Source: a virus
DNA: 38,330 bases
Direction: 5' to 3' (one strand)
UHGV virus genome: UHGV-0177677
A program made the translations under genes and the position numbers. This document shows positions 4,412-35,660 of this stretch, one piece after another. The first letter of the stretch is position 1. Every line of letters begins with the position of its first letter. A model generated the notes under the pieces. That model made no database searches and was not told the DNA's origin. It saw only the letters and a list, made by a program, of their open reading frames with translations.

Positions 4412-4638
4412 TGGCTGATGCAATGGATCTCGTACAGCAGCGCGTTGAAGAAGAACGCCAACGCCATATCCGTGCTGCCCGTGCCAAAACGCCGGGCGTG
4501 TCCCGCGTGCTTTGCATTGAGTGTGAAGCGCCAATTCCGCCAGCACGCCGCCGTGCCATTCCGGGTGTGCAGCTTTGCATTACCTGTCAGGAAATCGCAG
4601 AGCTGAAAGGCAAACATTACAACGGAGGTGCTGTATGA
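4411..4638 (+). CDS. TraR/DksA-family C4 zinc-finger protein
   Basis: 75 aa with CxxC...CxxC (CIECEAPIP...CITCQ), a typical phage TraR-like protein. Confidence 0.7.
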   Translation: MADAMDLVQQRVEEERQRHIRAARAKTPGVSRVLCIECEAPIPPARRRAIPGVQLCITCQEIAELKGKHYNGGAV

Positions 4639-5492
4639 GCACCATCCTGAAATGGGCGGGAAATAAAACTGCCATAATGTCCGAACTAAAAAAACATCTT
4701 CCTGCTGGCCCGCGACTGGTTGAACCTTTCGCGGGTTCCTGTGCTGTGATGATGGAGACGGATTATCCCAGCTATCTGGTTGCGGATATTAATCCTGATT
4801 TAATCAACCTCTATAAAAAGGTTGCCGCTGATTGTGAATCGTTTATATCTCGCGCCAGAGTTTTATTTGAGATCGCAAACAGGGAGGTGGCTTATTACAA
4901 CATAAGGCAGGAGTTTAATTACTCAACTGAAATTACTGATTTCATGAAAGCGGTATATTTCCTGTATCTCAATCGTCACGGTTACCGTGGTTTATGTCGC
5001 TATAACAAGAGCGGGCATTTCAACATTCCCTACGGTAATTATAAAAATCCGTATTTCCCTGAAAAAGAAATTCGCGCATTTGCAGAAAAGGCCCAGCGAG
5101 CAACGTTTATCTGCGCCAGCTTTGATGAAACGCTGGCGATGTTGAAGGCGGGGGATGTGGTGTATTGCGATCCGCCGTATGACGGTACGTTTTCCGGCTA
5201 TCACACTGACGGCTTCACTGAAGATGACCAGTATCACCTGGCATCTGTTCTTGAACATCGGTCATCAGAAGGACATCCGGTCATTGTTTCTAACAGTGAC
5301 ACATCCCTGATCCGTTCGCTGTATCGCAATTTTACTCACCACTACATCAAGGCAAAACGCAGCATCGGTGTGGCAGCTGGCGAGGGTAAATCAGCAACAG
5401 AAATCATTGCTGTTTCCGGGCCGCGCTGCTGGGTGGGATTTGATTATTCGCGTGGCGTGGATAGTTCTGCCGTGTACGGAGTACGTGCATGA
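4635..5492 (+). CDS. dam: DNA adenine methyltransferase (Dam-like, GATC-type N6-MTase)
   Basis: [11 protein letters not shown]... start, AdoMet motif (PFAGS), catalytic DPPY (CDPPYDG). ATG at 4635 with RBS ggagg. Confidence 0.85.
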
Positions 5493-7903
5493 GTCATGCC
5501 GATATGAACAACTGCTGCGGCTTTAACGAAGCTGCCGCATCGTTCTCATGGAACAGCTCGAAAAAGGCCATTAACCCTTATCTGGACCCGGTGGAAGTTG
5601 CGCCGGTTTCTACGCTTTCAAATCTGATCACTCTGTACGCTGCCGATAACGAGCAGGAACAGCTGCGCCGTGAGGCGCTGAGTGATCAGGTCTGGGAGCG
5701 TTATTTCTTTAATGAATCCCGTGATCCTGTCCAGCGCGAAATGGAACAGGATAAGCTCATTAGTCGGGCAAAGCTGGCGCATGAGCAGCAGCGTTTTAAT
5801 CCGGATATGGTCATTCTGGCGGACGTCAACGCCCAGCCTTCCCATATCAGCAAGCCGCTGATGCAACGTATTGAATACTTCAGCAGCCTGGGCAGGCCAA
5901 AGGCTTATTCCCGCTATTTACGTGAGACGATTAAGCCATGTCTGGAACGACTGGAGCATGTACGCGACAGTCAGCTATCTGCATCTTTTCGCTTTATGGC
6001 AAGCCATGAAGGGCTGGACGGCCTGCTGATCCTGCCTGAAATGAGTCAGGATCAGGTGAAACGCCTGTCCACCCTGGTAGCTGCGCATATGAGTATGTGC
6101 CTTGATGCCGCTTGTGGCGATTTGTATGCCACCGATGACGTTAAGCCAGAAGAAATCCGCAATACATGGGAAAGGGTGGCAGCGGAAACCCTGCGTCTGG
6201 ATGTCATCCCGCCTGCGTTTGAGCAACTCCGTCGGAAAAGAAACCGCCGTAAACCCGTGCCCTATGAACTCATTCCGGGGTCGCTGGCGCGTATGTTGTG
6301 CGCCGACTGGTGGTATCGGAAATTATGGAAGATGCGTTGCGAATGGCGGGAAGAGCAGTTGCGTGCTGTCTGCCTTGTCAGCAAAAAAGCATCTCCCTAT
6401 GTCAGCTATGAAGCCGTGTTGCATAAACGTGAGCAGCGCCGTAAGTCGCTGGAGTTTTTCCGTTCTCATGAACTGGTGAACGAAGACGGCGACACGCTAG
6501 ACATGGAGGATGTGGTAAACGCCAGCAGCAGCAACCCTGCGCATCGCCGCAATGAGATGATGGCCTGTGTTAAAGGTCTGGAGCTTATCGCGGAAATGCG
6601 CGGTGACTGCGCCGTTTTCTACACCATCACCTGTCCGTCACGTTTCCATTCCACGCTAAATAACGGCAGGCCCAACCCGACCTGGACAAATGCGACGGTA
6701 AGACAAAGCAGCGATTATCTGGTCGGTATGTTTGCTGCATTTCGTAAGGCGATGCACAAAGCCGGGTTGCGCTGGTATGGCGTGCGGGTGGCTGAGCCGC
6801 ATCACGACGGTACAGTTCACTGGCACCTGTTGTGTTTTATGCGCAAAAAAGACCGCCGCGCCATCACTGCATTACTGCGTAAGTTTGCCATCCGTGAAGA
6901 CCGCGAGGAGCTGGGCAATAACACTGGGCCGCGCTTTAAGTCTGAGTTGATTAACCCGCGCAAAGGTACGCCAACAAGCTACATCGCGAAATACATCAGT
7001 AAGAACATTGACGGGCGTGGTCTGGCTGGCGAGATCAGCAAGGAAACGGGGAAATCCCTGCGTGATAATGCTGAATACGTTAATGCCTGGGCGTCTCTGC
7101 ATCGTGTTCAGCAATTCCGCTTCTTTGGCATTCCGGGGCGTCAGGCTTACCGTGAACTGCGATTGCTGGCTGGTCAGGCGGCAAGGCAACAGGGGGACAA
7201 AAAAGCAGGTGCGCCGGTACTGGATAACCCGCGCCTTGATGCAATCCTGGCTGCTGCTGATGCTGGTTGTTTTGCCACCTACATCATGAAGCAGGGCGGC
7301 GTACTGGTTCCCCGCAAATATCACCTGATCAGAACCGCTTATGAAATCAACGAAGAGCCGACCGCCTATGGCGATCACGGCATTCGTATTTATGGCATCT
7401 GGTCACCCATTGCAGAGGGCAAGATCTGCACTCATGCAGTGAAGTGGAAAATGGTTCGTAAGGCCGTTGACGTTCAGGAGGCGGCAGCCGACCAGGGCGC
7501 TTGCGCCCCTTGGACTCGTGGCAATAACTGTCCCCTTGCTGAAAATTTGAACCAACAGGAGAAAGATAAATCAGCTGATGGGGACACCAGAACGGATATT
7601 ACCCGCATGGATGACAAGGAGTTGCACGATTTTCTGCACAGTATGAACAAAAAAGAGCGCCGGGAACTGGCTACAAGGTTACGCCTGGTGAAACCGAAAC
7701 GGCGTAGAAACTACAAACAGCGAATTACAGACCATCAACGACAGCAGCTCGTCTATGAACTGAAGTCCAGAGGATTTGATGGCAGCGAGAAAGAGGTAGA
7801 TTTACTCCTTCGCGGTGGCAGTATTCCGTCAGGAGCAGGCCTGCGTATCTTCTATCGGAACCAGCGTCTGAAGGAAGATGATAAGTGGCGGAACCTGTAT
7901 TAA
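5489..7903 (+). CDS. A: Replication initiation protein A (rolling-circle nickase, P2 gpA family)
   Basis: 804 aa; conserved gpA-like motifs ([32 protein letters not shown]). Start overlaps the dam stop (ATGA). Confidence 0.9.
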
Positions 7904-8055: not shown

Positions 8056-8244
8056 ATGCAGGACTATTTTTTGGAGTCTTTGAAGCTCCAGCGCATTGAT
8101 TTTTTTCTTAAGCTTGTAGCGGCTAGTGAGTGTAGTGATGAAGAGAAGGGGCTGGCCCTGCAGTGGGTTTCTGAACTGACAGATGAACTCATGGCAAAAA
8201 TCAGAACCCACGAATACAACCGCTCAATGGATGTCATCAGCTGA
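8056..8244 (+). CDS. Small SOS-controlled protein, candidate Tum-like antirepressor
   Basis: 62-aa ORF with RBS aggagg, directly downstream of the LexA box and upstream of the DinI-like gene. Position mirrors the 186 tum operon; the assignment is not sequence-proven. Confidence 0.4.
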   Translation: MQDYFLESLKLQRIDFFLKLVAASECSDEEKGLALQWVSELTDELMAKIRTHEYNRSMDVIS

Positions 8245-8254
8245 GGTGACTTTT

Positions 8255-8488
8255 ATGCGCATTGAAATACTGATCGATAAAGAGCAGAAGATTAGCCAGT
8301 CTACACTGGACGCCCTTGAATCCGAGCTTTACCGCAATCTGCGCCCCCTGTATCCCAAAACGGTAATTCGTATCCGCAAAGGTAGCTCTAACGGTGTGGA
8401 ACTGACCGGACTGCAACTGGACGAAGAAAGAAAACAAGTGATGAAAATTATGCAGAAGGTGTGGGAAGACGACAGCTGGCTGCATTAA
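8255..8488 (+). CDS. DinI-family protein
   Basis: Translation from ATG at 8255 (MRIEILIDKEQ...VWEDDSWLH) follows the E. coli DinI pattern (MRIEVTIAK...TWESADDWF). The track ORF starts upstream at 8183. Confidence 0.8.
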   Translation: MRIEILIDKEQKISQSTLDALESELYRNLRPLYPKTVIRIRKGSSNGVELTGLQLDEERKQVMKIMQKVWEDDSWLH

Positions 8489-8647
8489 GAAACGTTGCTG
8501 GCGTCTGAAATTGCTTCTGGCGTCAGCAAGGTTGAACAACGAGTACAGTGAGGCGTTAGGTGTGGCGTTTATTTGATGAGTGAACGCCCGTTCTGCGACA
8601 GGTTTGGAGATTAAGGTTGAAACTACGGGCAAAATACCATCTTTTTC

Positions 8648-9073
8648 CTACTTAATTGAGTCCAGTAACAAGTTACAGTTACTCTCATTGTAGAGAGAAC
8701 GAGCAATTAGTGTTACCTGCTTTCCATTCATTCCCGGCTTATCCCATAACACAGCTTCTTGCGACGCCACAAATTCAGCATAATCAATTATGCGTTGTTC
8801 GTGATCTGGTTCCTCATAGCCAAAGTATGAGAGCGCATCGTTGTAAGCGTGGTAAGCTGCTTTCTGTAATATCTTGATATCGGCTGTAGGTACTTGCTCC
8901 GTGTAGCTAGGATCTAATTGTGTGCTACTGCCATAGAATGCACATGAAAGGTAAGATATTGATTTCTGTTGAGCTTTAGTTCCTTTCTCATAGTTTTTAG
9001 CTGTTACCGCCTGAACTGGGACGCTAACAAAGCTTGCAACCAGAATTAAAATTAATACGTAAAAGCTTTTCAT
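8648..9073 (-). CDS. Secreted/periplasmic hypothetical protein (moron)
   Basis: 141 aa with a signal peptide (MKSFYVLILILVASFVSVPVQA). Opposite strand to the neighbouring phage genes, relatively AT-rich. Confidence 0.5.
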   Translation of the reverse strand: MKSFYVLILILVASFVSVPVQAVTAKNYEKGTKAQQKSISYLSCAFYGSSTQLDPSYTEQVPTADIKILQKAAYHAYNDALSYFGYEEPDHEQRIIDYAEFVASQEAVLWDKPGMNGKQVTLIARSLYNESNCNLLLDSIK

Positions 9074-9345
9074 TTTGACCTCAGCCGAAACGTTAGAGAG
9101 ACTATCGAAGTTTGTAAAACCCGTGGCGATTCAGTTTGAGATCCTCCCCCTTACATGATTTTTAATCAAATATATGCTTTTGTAAGCATACCTGTTAACC
9201 GAATTATTCATTTTTAGAGATCTTCCGACATACTGATTATGCCCGCTGAGGAGTTCACCTTGCGTAAAGTCCGATTCGCTTTACTCGTCTGTGCATGTCT
9301 ATGCTGCATGAGATTGCATGATCGTTTGAGGATCGTTTTTGCTAA

Positions 9346-9371
9346 GGCCCGCCAGAACTGGCGGGCTTTTG
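9346..9371 (+). terminator. Rho-independent terminator-like hairpin
   Basis: gcccgccag / ctggcgggc stem followed by TTTT at 9367-9370. Confidence 0.4.
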
Positions 9372-9415
9372 CGTAGATTATGCACCTGCATGAAAACCAC
9401 TACATAAAGCGGGCA

Positions 9416-9434
9416 GGCGTGGCGGGGATACGAG
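9416..9434. other. Putative cos site (cohesive-end sequence)
   Basis: GGCGTGGCGGGGATACGAG: the first 13 nt equal the start of the 186 cohesive end as I recall it (GGCGTGGCGGGGAAAGCAT; P2 GGCGAGGCGGGGAAAGCAC). Confidence 0.45.
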
Positions 9435-9577
9435 CGCGCGCTTAGATGAAAACATGCGCTGTTAGACAGAAGATAGTCTTAGACTTGAAAGCACTCCTAT
9501 ACCTGGGTAAGTTATTGGAATACTCCCATTGATCTCCCGAAGACGACCTTGTGTTGCAATTTCAACAGGTAATTAAG

Positions 9578-10684
9578 ATGACAGGAAATGTCCCAGTAGT
9601 ACTTAGTGAAGCAGAAATGAAATCCATTTTGACACTAATCACGAGATTTCCATGGAACGTGGCAAAACCTGTTATTTCAGCTCTTGGATTAGCTCGTGGT
9701 AAAGGTAGAGATGCTACTCATGGAAAAATACTGGAAGAATTAACAGAATTAAAGGAAAAGAATTTAAATAAATTTAATGATATCATAAGGTCTGTAAATA
9801 ATTTGATATTTGGTCAATTGGTCTACGGTGATAAAGCTTTTTTTTGTTTATCAGTAGACAACCAAATAATTTCCTCGCTAACAAAGGCTATGAAATTAAA
9901 GTGGGATTTATCTGAACAGCCTTCTGTCGCCTCAGATGTAATCCTTTCTGAGCAGGAAATTAATGCGTCGGGGAAGAATAAAATAAACTTAGTTCATTAT
10001 TCTGAGAGCAATAATCAGGCTTTAGCTCTATTTAGTTCCGTTAGAGAGCAAAAAATTAGAGAGCGGATTTCGCCTAAAAGTTTACCGCAGTACAGTGGCT
10101 ACGAAGAGATCATTGCTACTAAAAAAGAAAAGCATCAATGTTTTGATGTGTGCATTTTTAATAAGACCAACTCTACTATCTCTATTTTGATAGATGCAGG
10201 TATTAATACAATAGGTGAGAGCGTCTTGTTTGCAAAGAGTACTGTAGTAAGAGAACTTTATAATATTATAGGTGCTGAGTTTGCATCAAAAGAAAGAGAT
10301 TTCTTTCCCTTGATTGAACCAATCTTTAAGCAAGATCAAAAACCATACTCAACTCTTAATTATAAAGTTTTTGAGCTTTCATTCCTTACCCCTGAAGGGA
10401 CAACACATAAGGAAAGGAAAACTGACTCCACTAAAGATTTGAGACAAGATATCTTCAATCAAGAAGGTATTAAAGCCGTAGGCAATATCGGACTTTATAG
10501 GATAGGCATCAGGGTTGAGCGAACAAATCCTTTACTACAGTTAGCGGACAATGTAGAACTTACTATACCAGGAACGCTAAGACGGTACCTTGGTGGAAGC
10601 TCTGGTTCACCAGTGAATTTTGCTATACTTAGTAAATGTATCTCTCGTGATGATTTCGAAACGCTTACGAAGCTGATACTATAG
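9578..10684 (+). CDS. Hypothetical protein, gene 1 of AT-rich three-gene accessory cassette
   Basis: About 368 aa from ATG at 9578 (the track ORF uses GTG at 9551). No recognisable motif. Strongly AT-rich. Confidence 0.6.
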   Translation: MTGNVPVVLSEAEMKSILTLITRFPWNVAKPVISALGLARGKGRDATHGKILEELTELKEKNLNKFNDIIRSVNNLIFGQLVYGDKAFFCLSVDNQIISSLTKAMKLKWDLSEQPSVASDVILSEQEINASGKNKINLVHYSESNNQALALFSSVREQKIRERISPKSLPQYSGYEEIIATKKEKHQCFDVCIFNKTNSTISILIDAGINTIGESVLFAKSTVVRELYNIIGAEFASKERDFFPLIEPIFKQDQKPYSTLNYKVFELSFLTPEGTTHKERKTDSTKDLRQDIFNQEGIKAVGNIGLYRIGIRVERTNPLLQLADNVELTIPGTLRRYLGGSSGSPVNFAILSKCISRDDFETLTKLIL

Positions 10685-10696
10685 CTGGAGACAAAA

Positions 10697-11125
10697 ATGA
10701 AGGATGCTAACTTGGCAAAGACTATACAAGACATATGCTCAGAACGCCCAGAAGTGGGAGTTTTGGCGTGCATGTTTTATGAAAAACTTGCTAAGTTAGC
10801 AGCTCGCTCTCCTAATATATTCATTAGTTATAACCTTTTATTTGATATAGCGATTTCGAATAAGGGGGGCGCTAAAGTGGATGAGCATGATATTTACTTG
10901 GCTATCCAAGTTTTGTGTAATCCAAAAGTTAATTTTTTGAAATTAAACTATCAATTTATAGACGATGGTTTCGATCCAGTTAATATAAGCATTGCGGACG
11001 TGATTGATGCTGAAGATAATCAAGGTTTAGAGCATCCATATACTGGTGAGATTGTGCCAGACTACAAAAAATATGTATTTCCTTTCTTTACAGTTATTAA
11101 TTTCACAAAGGAAGGGGCGTACTAA
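10697..11125 (+). CDS. Hypothetical protein, gene 2 of the accessory cassette
   Basis: 142 aa, RBS ggaga, 12 bp after gene 1. No recognisable motif. Confidence 0.6.
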   Translation: MKDANLAKTIQDICSERPEVGVLACMFYEKLAKLAARSPNIFISYNLLFDIAISNKGGAKVDEHDIYLAIQVLCNPKVNFLKLNYQFIDDGFDPVNISIADVIDAEDNQGLEHPYTGEIVPDYKKYVFPFFTVINFTKEGAY

Positions 11126-11772
11126 TGCTTACAAGTCTGGATGATTTGGAGAAAAACTTTCATTTGCAGAAGGTTCACTTTGCCATTCAAAGGATTCAAT
11201 TTGCGTTGGAGTCCTATTCTAATTTCAACAGTCTTGTTCGAAAGGAGCTGGATTACGCTGTAAGTAAATTAGAGCAAAATGGCAATAAAATTAACTTTGA
11301 TCTCTCTGAAGATCAGTTAACTCTATATTTGCTTTCGTATGTTGAAAATAGATATCTGGGGCTCGAAGCCAGTCACGAGAAGAACCAGAGAGGACATTGT
11401 GATATATCTATTACCCTTGCAGATTATATCTGGCATGGGGAAGCTAAAAAACATTCTTCATATTTATATCTTTTTAAAGGTTATGCACAACTTACCGAGC
11501 GGTATAGTACTGGGACTATAAATAGCTCTTCGGGTGGTTTAATTATTTATACGAAAAACGCTTCCTGTTCTGACATGATGGATTCATGGAAAACATTCTT
11601 ATCAAAGAATGCACCTAGGATTCATGCTTGTAAATCCGTTAATATTATTGATTGCCCAAAAAACCCCTTGGTTTTTTATAGTCAGCACCTTCATACTGTA
11701 AGTAAGCTGGATTATCAAGTTGTGCATTATCCTGTATCATTACATCATAAACCTATAGACCCTGATCTATAG
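11125..11772 (+). CDS. Hypothetical protein with possible PD-(D/E)xK nuclease-like motif, gene 3 of the accessory cassette
   Basis: 215 aa; start overlaps the gene 2 stop (TAATG). Segment GHCDISITLADYIWHGEAKK fits D-x12-E-x-K. Confidence 0.55.
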   Translation: MLTSLDDLEKNFHLQKVHFAIQRIQFALESYSNFNSLVRKELDYAVSKLEQNGNKINFDLSEDQLTLYLLSYVENRYLGLEASHEKNQRGHCDISITLADYIWHGEAKKHSSYLYLFKGYAQLTERYSTGTINSSSGGLIIYTKNASCSDMMDSWKTFLSKNAPRIHACKSVNIIDCPKNPLVFYSQHLHTVSKLDYQVVHYPVSLHHKPIDPDL

Positions 11773-11807
11773 GTTAGCTTTTGCGGGCTTATTCAGCTAT
11801 TTGAGAG

Positions 11808-12848
11808 TTATTGCTCAATTGAGAGCTGATACGCTTCAAAATTTATTACTTTTTCCTCAATCCATTCGTTCAGTTCGCACATACGTTTCTGCAATGGCTG
11901 CAGTTCGTTACGTACAAAAACGCGAGCGGCTTTTTCCACATCCCCAAACCCCCCGACATTATTAGGCATAATCCCCATCATTTGCGGCGGCACGCGATGC
12001 GCTGCCATCATGTCATCCCGACTCACGTTCTTGATGTTAAGAAATTCATCCTTCGCCGCGACTTCTGACAATGGGATGATCTGAAGCCCGTCTTTTTTAC
12101 CGTTAGGCGAGTACATAAACAAGTTGCGGAAGTTGCCTGGACCTTTGGCGCTTTTCATTGCGTTGCGGAGGTTGTTCACATCCTCCTGGTTTTGCGCGGC
12201 ATCGGTCATGTACATGATGAAGCCTGCATGACTACCGTTAATGTAATACTTCCGGCGGAACAGCGTGGCGGACTCGTTGAGCAGAGCGGACGGAATGGCA
12301 GAAAGATAACCGGGCAGGCCGTAGATCTCCTGGTTGATGTCCGGTTCCAACAGATGAAAGATGCTGCCTTTCGTGAACTGATACGGCTGGGTTGTCATAC
12401 CGTATTGCACAAACCAGTAGGTATCCAGGTCTAACCCGCGTCGGGTGTATTTTGCCAGCGCAGGCTCAAGAGCGATGACCTCTCCGAAGCGGTTCGTGCG
12501 TTTTTCCAGGTAGGCGTTACCAAAAACCAGATAGTCCTGTACAAAACGCGAAAAAGCCTGCTGGCTGAGCAGCGGGTGAGGGATGTAGGTGCTGGTCAGA
12601 ATGTTGCATTTCACCGCAATTGGTGAACTGTGATGCACGGCAGCGCGGAAGGTGCGCGCCAGTCCGTCAAAGCTGACAGGAGGCTCATACCAGCGATCTG
12701 TCTGTACGCATTCCACATAGTCCAGCAGTTCGCGGCGGTCAAGTACAGGAACGGGATCACCGAAGCTGAATGCTTCGGCTGAAGTCTGGCTTTTATGCTT
12801 GAGCTGATTCGTCGCCGCAGCGCGGTTTTTCTTACTCTTTCCCATCAA
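11808..12848 (-). CDS. Q: Portal protein (P2 gpQ)
   Basis: 346 aa, MMGKSKKNRAAA... P2 Q-like N-terminus. Adjacent to and overlapping the terminase gene. Confidence 0.9.
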   Translation of the reverse strand: MMGKSKKNRAAATNQLKHKSQTSAEAFSFGDPVPVLDRRELLDYVECVQTDRWYEPPVSFDGLARTFRAAVHHSSPIAVKCNILTSTYIPHPLLSQQAFSRFVQDYLVFGNAYLEKRTNRFGEVIALEPALAKYTRRGLDLDTYWFVQYGMTTQPYQFTKGSIFHLLEPDINQEIYGLPGYLSAIPSALLNESATLFRRKYYINGSHAGFIMYMTDAAQNQEDVNNLRNAMKSAKGPGNFRNLFMYSPNGKKDGLQIIPLSEVAAKDEFLNIKNVSRDDMMAAHRVPPQMMGIMPNNVGGFGDVEKAARVFVRNELQPLQKRMCELNEWIEEKVINFEAYQLSIEQ

Positions 12849-14611
12849 AAAATCTCCACAATATTGCTGGTATTGGCGGACTCGCCCTGCAGCGGTTCGT
12901 TAAACAGTGCGTGCATCGTTGCCCAGGCCAGATCGGCGTGGCTGGCTTCTTCGCTGCGGCTGGCTTCATAGGTCGGGCGGTTGCCACTGGCGGTGGTGGC
13001 GCGACGGATTGCCATAAATGACTGCGCTATGTCGGTGTGTCCGGCGTCAAACTCCAGACGACGGTGACTGATAATGTCGTAGGCTTTGAGTACCAGTGCG
13101 TTTTTAACGTTGGGGTTGTAGACAAACTCCCGGACGGCAGGAAAGAACGCTTTCACGTTCTCGTAAACCCCGTGACCGACACCTGTTGAGTCGATGCCGA
13201 TATAGGTCACGTTGTACTGTTCGGTCAGTTTTTTGATGGCGTCAGCCTGGGCGCGGAAGTCCATCCCGCGCCACTGGTGACGCTCAAGAATGCGAAACTT
13301 ACCGCCTGGCACGGCTGGCGGTGCCACCACCACGCATCCGGCGCTGTCGCCGTTCTGCGTACCTTTCGCCGGGTCATAACCGATCCACACTTCGCGCCAG
13401 CCAAACGGGCGCAGTGCCAGTGCATGAAAGTCGGTCCAGACTTCCCAGCTGTCCACCATGCACGCCTGCAGCTCGCTGAGCGGAAACACGGACGCGAGAT
13501 CGTCCACGAACTCGCACATCAGCAGGTTCTGGTATTCGTCCGGGCTGTACTCCATGCGCAACTGGTCAAGGTCGAACAGGTTGCAGCCGCCGCGCACCGC
13601 ATCTTCCACGGTGACTATCTGGCGGTATTGCCCGTCTGCGCACAGCAGGCCGGGGGCCAGATTGCTGTGGGACAGGTCGATGTCCACCTTATCGGCTTTG
13701 TTGCGCCCACGGTTGAACAGCGCACCGGACCAGAACGGATAAGCACTGTGTGTCAGACTGGATGGCGTGGAAAAATAGGTCTGTCGCCATTTTTTGTGAA
13801 TAGCCATACCGGAAGCCACTTTGCGCAGCTCCTGGAATTTCGGTATCCAGAAATATTCATCCAGATACAGGTTGCCGTGGTAACTCTGGGCCGTGCGGGC
13901 ATTGGTGCCGAGGAAGTAAAGCGTGGCCCCGTTGGGAAGCACCATCGGATCGCCTTTCAGTTCCACATCCACTTCTTTGGCGAAGTCGATGATGTACTGC
14001 TTAAAGACGTGGGCCTGTGCCTTGCTGGCGGAAAGGAAAATCTGGTTACGTTCGGTAAGCAGGGCGTCAATCAGGGCTTCACGGGCAAAGTAAAAGGTCG
14101 CGCCGATCTGGCGTGACTTCAGCAGGTTGCGGATGCGGTTGGTTTTTCCGGCTTCCCACCAGTGGCGCTGGTAGTTGAACATGGAGGAATGGAAGATTTC
14201 TTCCAGCTTCTCAATCTGTTCATCGGTGAAGACATTCTTTTCCGGCTGGCGGCGCGGGCCTTTGTTGCGGTTGGCGACGTTAGGGTTTAAGTCAGCTTCG
14301 TTGCCGCCATTGTTAAACTTGCCGATCCGCGCGTGGCGCTCAGACTGGCGCGCCAGCAGGTCAATCTCTTTGAAATCTTTCCCTTCTTTGTGCTCCTTCA
14401 TAATGAGCTGGCAGTAGCGTGCGGCGGTGGTGAGCTGCATCTGATCCAGCGGCCCATAGTCACCCCACTTGTCGCGTTTTTTCCAGCTGTGAACGGTTGC
14501 AACTTTCTCGCCCAGCATTTCAGCAATGCGGGCAACGCGGTATCCCTGAAAGTACAGCAGCATGGCCTGCCGACGGGGATCGAGATCTGCGGGTGTCAGT
14601 GTGGTGTTCAT
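12845..14611 (-). CDS. P: Terminase large (ATPase) subunit (P2 gpP)
   Basis: 588 aa, P2 gpP-like length and position, divergent from O. Confidence 0.9.
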   Translation of the reverse strand: MNTTLTPADLDPRRQAMLLYFQGYRVARIAEMLGEKVATVHSWKKRDKWGDYGPLDQMQLTTAARYCQLIMKEHKEGKDFKEIDLLARQSERHARIGKFNNGGNEADLNPNVANRNKGPRRQPEKNVFTDEQIEKLEEIFHSSMFNYQRHWWEAGKTNRIRNLLKSRQIGATFYFAREALIDALLTERNQIFLSASKAQAHVFKQYIIDFAKEVDVELKGDPMVLPNGATLYFLGTNARTAQSYHGNLYLDEYFWIPKFQELRKVASGMAIHKKWRQTYFSTPSSLTHSAYPFWSGALFNRGRNKADKVDIDLSHSNLAPGLLCADGQYRQIVTVEDAVRGGCNLFDLDQLRMEYSPDEYQNLLMCEFVDDLASVFPLSELQACMVDSWEVWTDFHALALRPFGWREVWIGYDPAKGTQNGDSAGCVVVAPPAVPGGKFRILERHQWRGMDFRAQADAIKKLTEQYNVTYIGIDSTGVGHGVYENVKAFFPAVREFVYNPNVKNALVLKAYDIISHRRLEFDAGHTDIAQSFMAIRRATTASGNRPTYEASRSEEASHADLAWATMHALFNEPLQGESANTSNIVEIF

Positions 14612-16665: not shown

Positions 16666-17316
16666 ATGAGCCTGAGTCCCGCACGGCAGCATCGCCTGCG
16701 CGTTCAGGCTGAACAGGCCGCCCGTGAGGGCGGCAGTGTTCGCCACGTGTCGGGCTATGACCTGATGCTGCTGCAACTGGCGGAAGACCGCCGCCGTCTC
16801 AAGGGCGTTCAGTCCACGGTGAAAAAAGCGGAAATAAAGGTGGAGCTGCTGCCGAAATATGCCGCCTGGGCGGAGGGCGTTCTGGCTGCCGGAGGCGCTC
16901 AACAGGATGACGTGCTGATGTACGTGATGCTGTGGCGCATTGATGCCGGAGATTATGCCGGGGCGCTGGAGATCGGGCGTCATGCCCTGCGTCATGGCTG
17001 GGTGATGCCGCTGGGTAACCGCAACGTGCAGACCGTGCTGGCAGAGGAAATGGCAGACGCGGCGCAGAGCGCAATGCTTGCTGCCACCGGCTTTGATGCC
17101 GATCTGTTGCTGCAGACGCTGGAGCTGACAGACGGTCTGGATATGCCGGATCAGTCACGGGCGCGTCTGCATAAAGCGATTGGCGCGGTCCTGAGTGAAG
17201 GCAATCCGGCGTCTGCCCTTAATCATCTCAACCATGCGTTACAGCTCGATCCCCGCTGTGGCGTGAAAAAAGACAAACAGCAGCTGGAGCGCAGACTGCG
17301 CAATGACAGCCGCTGA
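16666..17316 (+). CDS. M: Terminase small/endonuclease subunit (P2 gpM)
   Basis: 216 aa, follows N as in P2. Confidence 0.8.
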   Translation: MSLSPARQHRLRVQAEQAAREGGSVRHVSGYDLMLLQLAEDRRRLKGVQSTVKKAEIKVELLPKYAAWAEGVLAAGGAQQDDVLMYVMLWRIDAGDYAGALEIGRHALRHGWVMPLGNRNVQTVLAEEMADAAQSAMLAATGFDADLLLQTLELTDGLDMPDQSRARLHKAIGAVLSEGNPASALNHLNHALQLDPRCGVKKDKQQLERRLRNDSR

Positions 17317-35489: not shown

Positions 35490-35515
35490 TAAATTTCAGG
35501 CAACAAAAAACCCAT
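35490..35515. repeat. attR core (26-bp direct repeat)
   Basis: Identical to 591-616. Confidence 0.8.
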
Positions 35516-35547
35516 CAACCTTGAACCGAAATGGCGGGGTTGATGGG
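35505..35547 (-). terminator. Rho-independent terminator of host ybjL (overlaps att core)
   Basis: Stem cccatcaacc / ggttgatggg at 35511-35547, followed on the minus strand by TTTTTTG. Confidence 0.55.
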
Positions 35548-35660
35548 CTCCACAAAATGGGGACATCAAAGAAAAGCAGTGGCACTAATTAAGACTGATG
35601 CCCTGCGGAAAAGTTCTGCGGTTGTGCAAAAAAAAATTCATTTTCAGGGCAACTTCAGTT

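Follow-up and report, generated by a model that had tools for sequence, protein, structure and literature searches.

The 19-nt sequence GGCGTGGCGGGGATACGAG, at positions 9416-9434 (+ strand) of the 38,330-bp stretch of viral DNA analysed here (the window), is very probably the functional cos of an intact 34.9-kb prophage of E. coli, a member of the P2 family of the Fels-2/186 type, as judged from its sequence and its setting. The exact 19-mer has been recorded before, as have cargo genes between cos and the portal gene Q, and the finding is an ordinary one. The features that mark a P2-family cos are found together here: a homologous 19-mer, the 55-bp core that surrounds it, a single copy located between genes A and Q, and the cognate gpP and gpM.

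The prophage is bounded by a 26-bp direct repeat, TAAATTTCAGGCAACAAAAAACCCAT, at 591-616 and 35490-35515, which gives it a length of 34,899 bp. The host flank is the ybjL-ybjM-grxA region of E. coli. The 3' end of the sRNA gene rybB (RybB, 35502-35580, - strand) falls within the right att repeat, so integration takes place in rybB and rebuilds the end of the gene. Full-length family matches were obtained for int, CI, A, Q, P, the scaffold O, the capsid N, M, sheath, tape measure, D and the tail fibre. The homologue of replication gene A (Pfam Phage_GPA) occupies 5489-7903, next to a Dam-type methylase gene of the prophage at 4575-5492. On the other side of cos, the portal gene Q (11808-12848, - strand) matches Pfam Phage_portal with E = 1.4e-17 and is named phage portal protein in RefSeq. 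It is followed by the gene for the large terminase subunit, the gpP homologue and expected cutter of cos (12845-14611, - strand; Pfam Terminase_6N, Terminase_6C and Terminase_5). The small terminase subunit, the gpM homologue expected to recognise cos, is encoded at 16666-17316 (+ strand; Pfam Phage_term_smal, E = 2e-40).

With no sign of decay in this gene set, a working cos is the simplest reading. The site could instead be a relic, a cos homologue with no present function in a prophage that has lost the capacity for induction or packaging. Prophage decay is common, and a Serratia element described below (L254) that keeps cos, the same cargo triad and Q with most of the phage lost shows that remnants of this kind exist. 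In the window, however, both att repeats are in place 34.9 kb apart, every major gene tested has a full-length family match, and the conserved region around cos departs from the consensus of 131 relatives at hardly any conserved column. A relic is improbable on these grounds.

The cohesive-end sequence and the cos core

The first-pass annotation had picked out this 19-mer from its resemblance to the cohesive ends of phages 186 and P2 over the first 13 nt. The agreement is exact for 186 (GGCGTGGCGGGGAAAGCAT; 15/19 over the whole sequence), and with the P2 end, GGCGAGGCGGGGAAAGCAC, it is 12/13 over the first 13 nt and 14/19 overall. The difference is concentrated in positions 14-19 of the overhang, which read TACGAG here versus AAGCAC and AAGCAT in P2 and 186. 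The cohesive-end features annotated in the P2 and 186 records served as reference ends, as did the first bases of the P4 record, which correspond to them.

The 19-mer is the sole match to itself in the window at up to 3 mismatches. A search of the whole window found no second copy of the 13-nt core at 0-1 mismatch. A second cos-like site was sought across the window, including the sequence beside the Q stop; the only candidates, at 5449 and 17770, have 2 mismatches and are at chance level. Between the cargo genes and the Q stop there are only 35 bp, too few for an alternative cos, and this spacer contains no significant hairpin.

The likeness to P2-family cos sites extends to both sides of the 19-mer. 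The 55-bp core characteristic of the family (Ziermann and Calendar 1990, as quoted in passages of PMC5694545 and PMC3931495) lies at 9387-9441 on the + strand, where it runs from TGCATGAAAACC to AAGCGGGCA, then through the 19-mer, and closes with CGCGCGC. It is identical to the core of SEN8 at 54/55 positions, of 186 at 44/55, of P4 at 43/55 and of P2 at 42/55. The set against which the candidate was to be compared (P2, P4 and 186) thus bears out its identification as a cos homologue, and SEN8 is closer than any of them. Elements kept in all five core sequences compared are TGCAT-AAAACC and AAG-GGGC in the left flank and GCGCGC in the right flank. Phages 186, P2 and P4 share with the window the architecture of this core with its 19-nt 5' cohesive ends, the location of cos between gpA and Q, and terminase genes of the same type.

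That so short a motif might be nothing other than a chance match in G+C-rich sequence has a negligible probability. A match of this quality is expected 0.01 times per window, the homology spans 55-151 bp, and the site recurs at the same position and in the same orientation relative to Q in relatives of the prophage. In 142 loci that carry a relative of the window Q, a cos core follows Q in the same orientation, and 106 of these loci have the exact 19-mer.

The closest known site is that of SEN8, a Salmonella phage of the genus Felsduovirus. The SEN8 record starts with the identical 19-mer, annotated as "putative cos site", and the genome announcement of this phage names the 19-mer as cos; the assignment was made at annotation, not by end mapping. 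That announcement is also the only paper in which the exact 19-mer was found, and the literature search returned no experimentally determined termini for Fels-2-type phages or for the exact 19-mer.

A further record with the same cos is OM835953.1 (L007, "Klebsiella phage KP12 clone KP12_3"), a 34.8-kb genome of the P2/Fels-2 type that also carries the same cargo at 99.3% identity. It is filed under Vequintavirinae; most likely a prophage was co-induced and its taxonomy line misassigned.

The conserved island and packaging

Conservation around cos reaches well past the 55-bp core. The region around the core was aligned from loci carrying a relative of the window portal gene, and in the 131 unique relatives column conservation is near-complete over 9291-9441 (151 bp, + strand) and at background just outside both borders, where the flanks are unrelated. 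Within this island, 125 bp precede the 19-mer on the gpA side and only 7 bp (CGCGCGC) follow it towards Q. Alignments found by BLAST in phage records end at about the same borders. SEN8 and Fels-2, the latter a Salmonella Felsduovirus and the type phage of the lineage, have a conserved island of 150 bp in common with the window.

Two kinds of element are found within the island. The first is a set of four TGCATG hexamers, all in the same orientation (+ strand), that begin at 9292, 9305, 9315 and 9387 and together span 9292-9392. The window has nine copies of this hexamer in all, so that a 110-nt stretch of the cos flank, with an expectation of 0.03, contains four of the nine. Their positions are highly conserved in relatives, one of them is inside the 55-bp core, and TGCA(T/A) motifs occur at corresponding places in 186, P2 and P4. 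The repeats are candidate recognition elements for the small terminase subunit.

The second element is a G+C-rich hairpin (9344-9369) followed by TTTT, together 9344-9373 on the + strand. It has a folding energy of -24.6 kcal/mol (z = -4.2 versus shuffles), is conserved in relatives, and aligns with the stretch of 186 annotated as terminator t95b, of which it is the positional homologue. A consensus terminator scan did not return this hairpin, and a search of Rfam with the cos region and its surroundings gave no RNA family. From its position and its 186 counterpart, the hairpin probably stops rightward transcription of the SOS operon before it reaches cos.

In phage lambda, cos consists of a nicking site, cosN, and a set of terminase-binding repeats, cosB, and the overhang is 12 nt. 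The island could have an analogous layout, with a nicking site flanked on one side by short repeats that may bind the small terminase subunit. The two sites have no sequence relationship, however, the overhang predicted here is 19 nt, and the repeats are on the side that would become the right end of the virion DNA.

The genes that precede the island on the gpA side vary. Upstream of cos is a DinI/Tum-like gene (RefSeq start 8255, end 8488). Next comes a cargo gene for a 141-aa protein with a signal-peptide-like N-terminus (8648-9073, - strand), which belongs to PHROG 7437, a family of unknown function. This gpA-side slot holds a different gene in each of KP12, Fels-2 and SEN8. Searches of Pfam, PADLOC and NCBIfam with the gpA-side ORFs gave nothing. 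An ORF of 131 aa at 8237-8632 (- strand) was set aside as probably not a gene, since it shares its sequence in part with the DinI-like gene of the other strand, no family matches it, and RefSeq leaves it unannotated.

These observations bear on how much of the island serves in packaging. It is possible, though we rather doubt it, that only the 55-bp core is the packaging signal and that the distal 95 bp (9291-9386) is kept as the terminator or end of the SOS (tum/DinI) operon. The distal segment, with three of the TGCATG copies, also contains the hairpin that aligns with the annotated 186 terminator, and P2 and P4 share only the proximal core with the window. Against this, the island is conserved whatever gene precedes it, as the differences among KP12, Fels-2 and SEN8 make clear; the hexamers are strongly over-represented and conserved, with one in the core itself; and 186 has the same motif pattern as the window.

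By homology with P2 and 186, the terminase (gpM plus gpP) would recognise the conserved island after excision and replication of the prophage. Staggered nicks would then be made between 9415 and 9416 on the top strand and between 9434 and 9435 on the bottom strand, the positions being those of the homologous sites. The product would be a linear virion chromosome with 19-nt 5' overhangs of the sequence GGCGTGGCGGGGATACGAG. Its right end would carry gpA, the DinI-like gene, the 141-aa cargo gene and the 125-bp conserved flank. With nicks at the predicted positions, the left end would start with the three-gene cargo operon, followed by Q. The placement of three genes (2.4 kb) at the extreme left end of the virion DNA, proposed earlier on the condition that the site was real, would follow from a cos homologue at 9416-9434.

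A true cos could also be cut at other positions than those of P2 and 186, to give a different overhang length or a shift of a few bases. Positions 14-19 of the overhang are unlike those of P2 and 186, and a related Serratia phage has been reported with a 12-nt overhang, GCATTGCGCGCC (PMC7556043), so overhang length is not fixed among cos phages. The sequences that abut both predicted nicks (GCGGGCA on the left, CGCGCGC on the right) are nevertheless conserved with P2, P4 and 186, and a displaced cut is very improbable, even more so than a relic. Nicks at the homologous positions are the preferred reading.

Distance between cos and Q

From the last base of the 19-mer (9434), 2,373 bp extend to the Q stop codon (lower coordinate 11808), and three + strand genes lie in between, in agreement with the earlier estimate of about 2.4 kb and three extra genes. 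The first-pass annotation had contrasted this with P2, where it placed the end of Q roughly 100 bp from cos, and had considered the location of the cassette unusual. The closeness in P2 is correct and the figure slightly low: the P2 record has 167 bp between cosL (1-19) and the Q CDS (187-1221), and the distance in 186 is 176 bp. P2 carries its own cargo (tin, old) on the gpA side of cos. The view that the location is unusual does not hold for the lineage to which this prophage belongs.

A survey was made of 67 loci from species-representative genomes and 75 viral contigs, each with a relative of the window Q. The median gap between cos and Q was 1,650 bp in the genome loci and 1,689 bp in the viral loci, with a range of 104-5,352 bp, and gap lengths take many distinct values across the 142 loci. 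Gaps of at least 300 bp were found in 56/67 genome and 74/75 viral loci, and shorter ones in 11/67 and 1/75. As a control, the same survey was carried out on the 80 closest relatives of P2's own Q. There the gap was 156-170 bp in 77/79 (Q about 169 bp from cos), and 1.4-1.9 kb in the other two. Tight spacing therefore belongs to the P2 lineage proper, and the window is typical of its own, Fels-2-type lineage; the contrast with P2 is real, but it is a difference between lineages.

Named members of the lineage have genes in the same place. Between cos and Q, Fels-2 carries a single gene of 1.7 kb and SEN8 a pair of genes. On either side of cos, these Salmonella phages have other cargo genes than the present E. 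coli prophage. The interval between cosL and Q had earlier been suggested as a hotspot for foreign genes in P2-like phages (PMC5694545, the relevant passage of which cites Dodd and Egan 1996 and Nakayama 1999). More broadly, the whole gpA-gpQ interval around cos has been described as a defence hotspot (Rousset et al. 2022, PMC9122126), and the interval beside cos as the main one of P2-like phages (PMC9122126, PMC13586616). In those papers the two sides of cos are not treated separately.

Cargo placement in the survey splits by lineage, between the close P2 relatives (loci L173-L252) and the Fels-2-type loci (L008-L167). The Fels-2-type relatives have a median of about 1.7 kb from cos to Q and cargo on the gpA side as well. 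Two of the surveyed loci come from assemblies with unexpected labels, L067 (a MAG labelled Bacillota bacterium) and L069 (a Chryseobacterium sp. assembly). Their Q homologues are 94% and 65% identical, respectively, and both have typical enterobacterial cos cores; contamination or mis-binning is the probable explanation.

The survey adds a modest quantitative point to the hotspot literature: cargo on the Q side is routine in Fels-2-type phages, whereas close P2 relatives keep Q beside cos. The island is a fixed point with swappable cargo slots on both sides, of which the cos-to-Q slot is the usual cargo position of this lineage. The fixed 151 bp between the two slots can therefore serve as a practical anchor for extracting each slot separately in hotspot surveys.

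The three-gene cargo operon

The cos of this prophage is ordinary; it is possible, and we say so tentatively, that the operon beside it is not. Its three genes encode a protein with an RdgC-type fold, a 142-aa protein, and a BamHI-like nuclease with no methyltransferase. Cargo gene 1 (9578-10684, + strand, from the RefSeq start) encodes 368 aa with a predicted RdgC/RexA/CENP-N-type fold and belongs to PHROG 12777, of unknown function. Cargo gene 2 (10697-11125, + strand) encodes the 142-aa protein and belongs to PHROG 11490, likewise of unknown function. Cargo gene 3 (11125-11772, + strand) encodes 215 aa with a predicted BamHI-type PD-(D/E)xK nuclease fold. The G+C content of the three genes is 32-38%, versus 51-61% in the neighbouring core genes. 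A promoter scan gave no + strand promoter at threshold upstream of the operon.

All three proteins are listed as hypothetical in RefSeq and in the KP12 record, and none has a match in Pfam, PADLOC or NCBIfam. Their RefSeq protein accessions are not mentioned in the searchable papers. Profile and sequence searches against PDB sequences returned nothing useful for the cargo, with no PDB sequence match for gene 2. The AlphaFold2 models are confident (pLDDT 86 and 91, the lower value for gene 1), and Foldseek comparison of the gene 1 model with the PDB gave RdgC (2owl, E = 1e-6) and CENP-N (E = 5e-4), together with a likeness to the CENP-N/L pair. The group of proteins with this fold also includes lambda RexA (PMC11077077), which was not among the top 50 PDB structure matches of gene 1. 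Given a fold of the RdgC/RexA/CENP-N type in the model, gene 1 probably encodes a DNA-binding protein.

The distribution of the operon is quite different from that of the cos beside it. Of 5,426 complete E. coli genomes, 1,274 contain the cos island and only 6 the cargo. Two E. coli strains, GW-AmxH19 (NZ_CP048647) and CU532-9 (NZ_CP082776), are 100% identical to the window over 9291-11810, a segment that takes in both the cos island and the cargo. Further afield, the ordered triad recurs at about 41-64% protein identity in elements of Rosenbergiella, Plesiomonas, Serratia and Providencia, and in relatives the gene 2 homologue is always located between genes 1 and 3. In other prophages it occupies the same cos-Q slot, at about 43-65% identity: L042 (Rosenbergiella), L058 (Plesiomonas), L098 and L162.

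The triad has also been detected outside complete prophages. In a contig of Providencia manganoxydans (JBGAAG010000015.1; L253, 6001-8224) it is inside a P4-like satellite, in the order integrase, Toprim primase, triad, Psu, Delta, with a cos core at 10623-10641. The cassette thus occurs in helper phages and satellites alike. In Serratia ureilytica (L254, 3836-9284) all that is left of a prophage at the same ybjL/ybjM locus is cos with the triad, Q and an Ogr-like gene; beyond cos, on the side away from the triad, there are a PRTase-CE gene and a NADAR gene. Cargo seems to have been retained here after the phage was lost.

The setting of the triad resembles that of cargo in the gpA-gpQ hotspot of P2-like phages, where hypervariable, AT-rich genes beside cos differ between otherwise similar prophages. 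The slot is variable here too, with gaps of 104-5,352 bp among relatives and unrelated sequence past the border of the island. The triad differs from the cargo described in that hotspot in that it has no PADLOC family or published function; searches of PADLOC, Pfam and NCBIfam with the three proteins assigned none of them to a known anti-phage family.

The cassette was compared with two known kinds of system. As in Type II restriction-modification, an endonuclease fold of the PD-(D/E)xK type is predicted (gene 3). No methyltransferase accompanies it: genes 1 and 2 have no methyltransferase domain in Pfam, and the gene 1 model has an RdgC-type fold. The Dam-type methylase at 4575-5492 is also found in KP12 and Fels-2 and so is not part of the cassette. 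For a Rex-like system, the gene 1 model points to the fold group in which RexA has been placed, and a polytopic membrane partner like RexB was not seen; no hydrophobic stretch of membrane-helix length was seen when the translations of genes 2 and 3 were read by eye. With neither a methyltransferase nor a membrane partner in the cassette, the operon is neither a standard restriction-modification system nor RexAB.

A nuclease-based anti-phage function is plausible from the position of the operon and the modelled folds, which makes the triad a candidate for a new anti-phage system. By homology, the cos described here would fix the ends of the virion genome and the gene order for a common type of E. 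coli prophage, and in itself matters little. The cargo operon is the only lead worth following, and it is a reasonable candidate for a defence-system screen.
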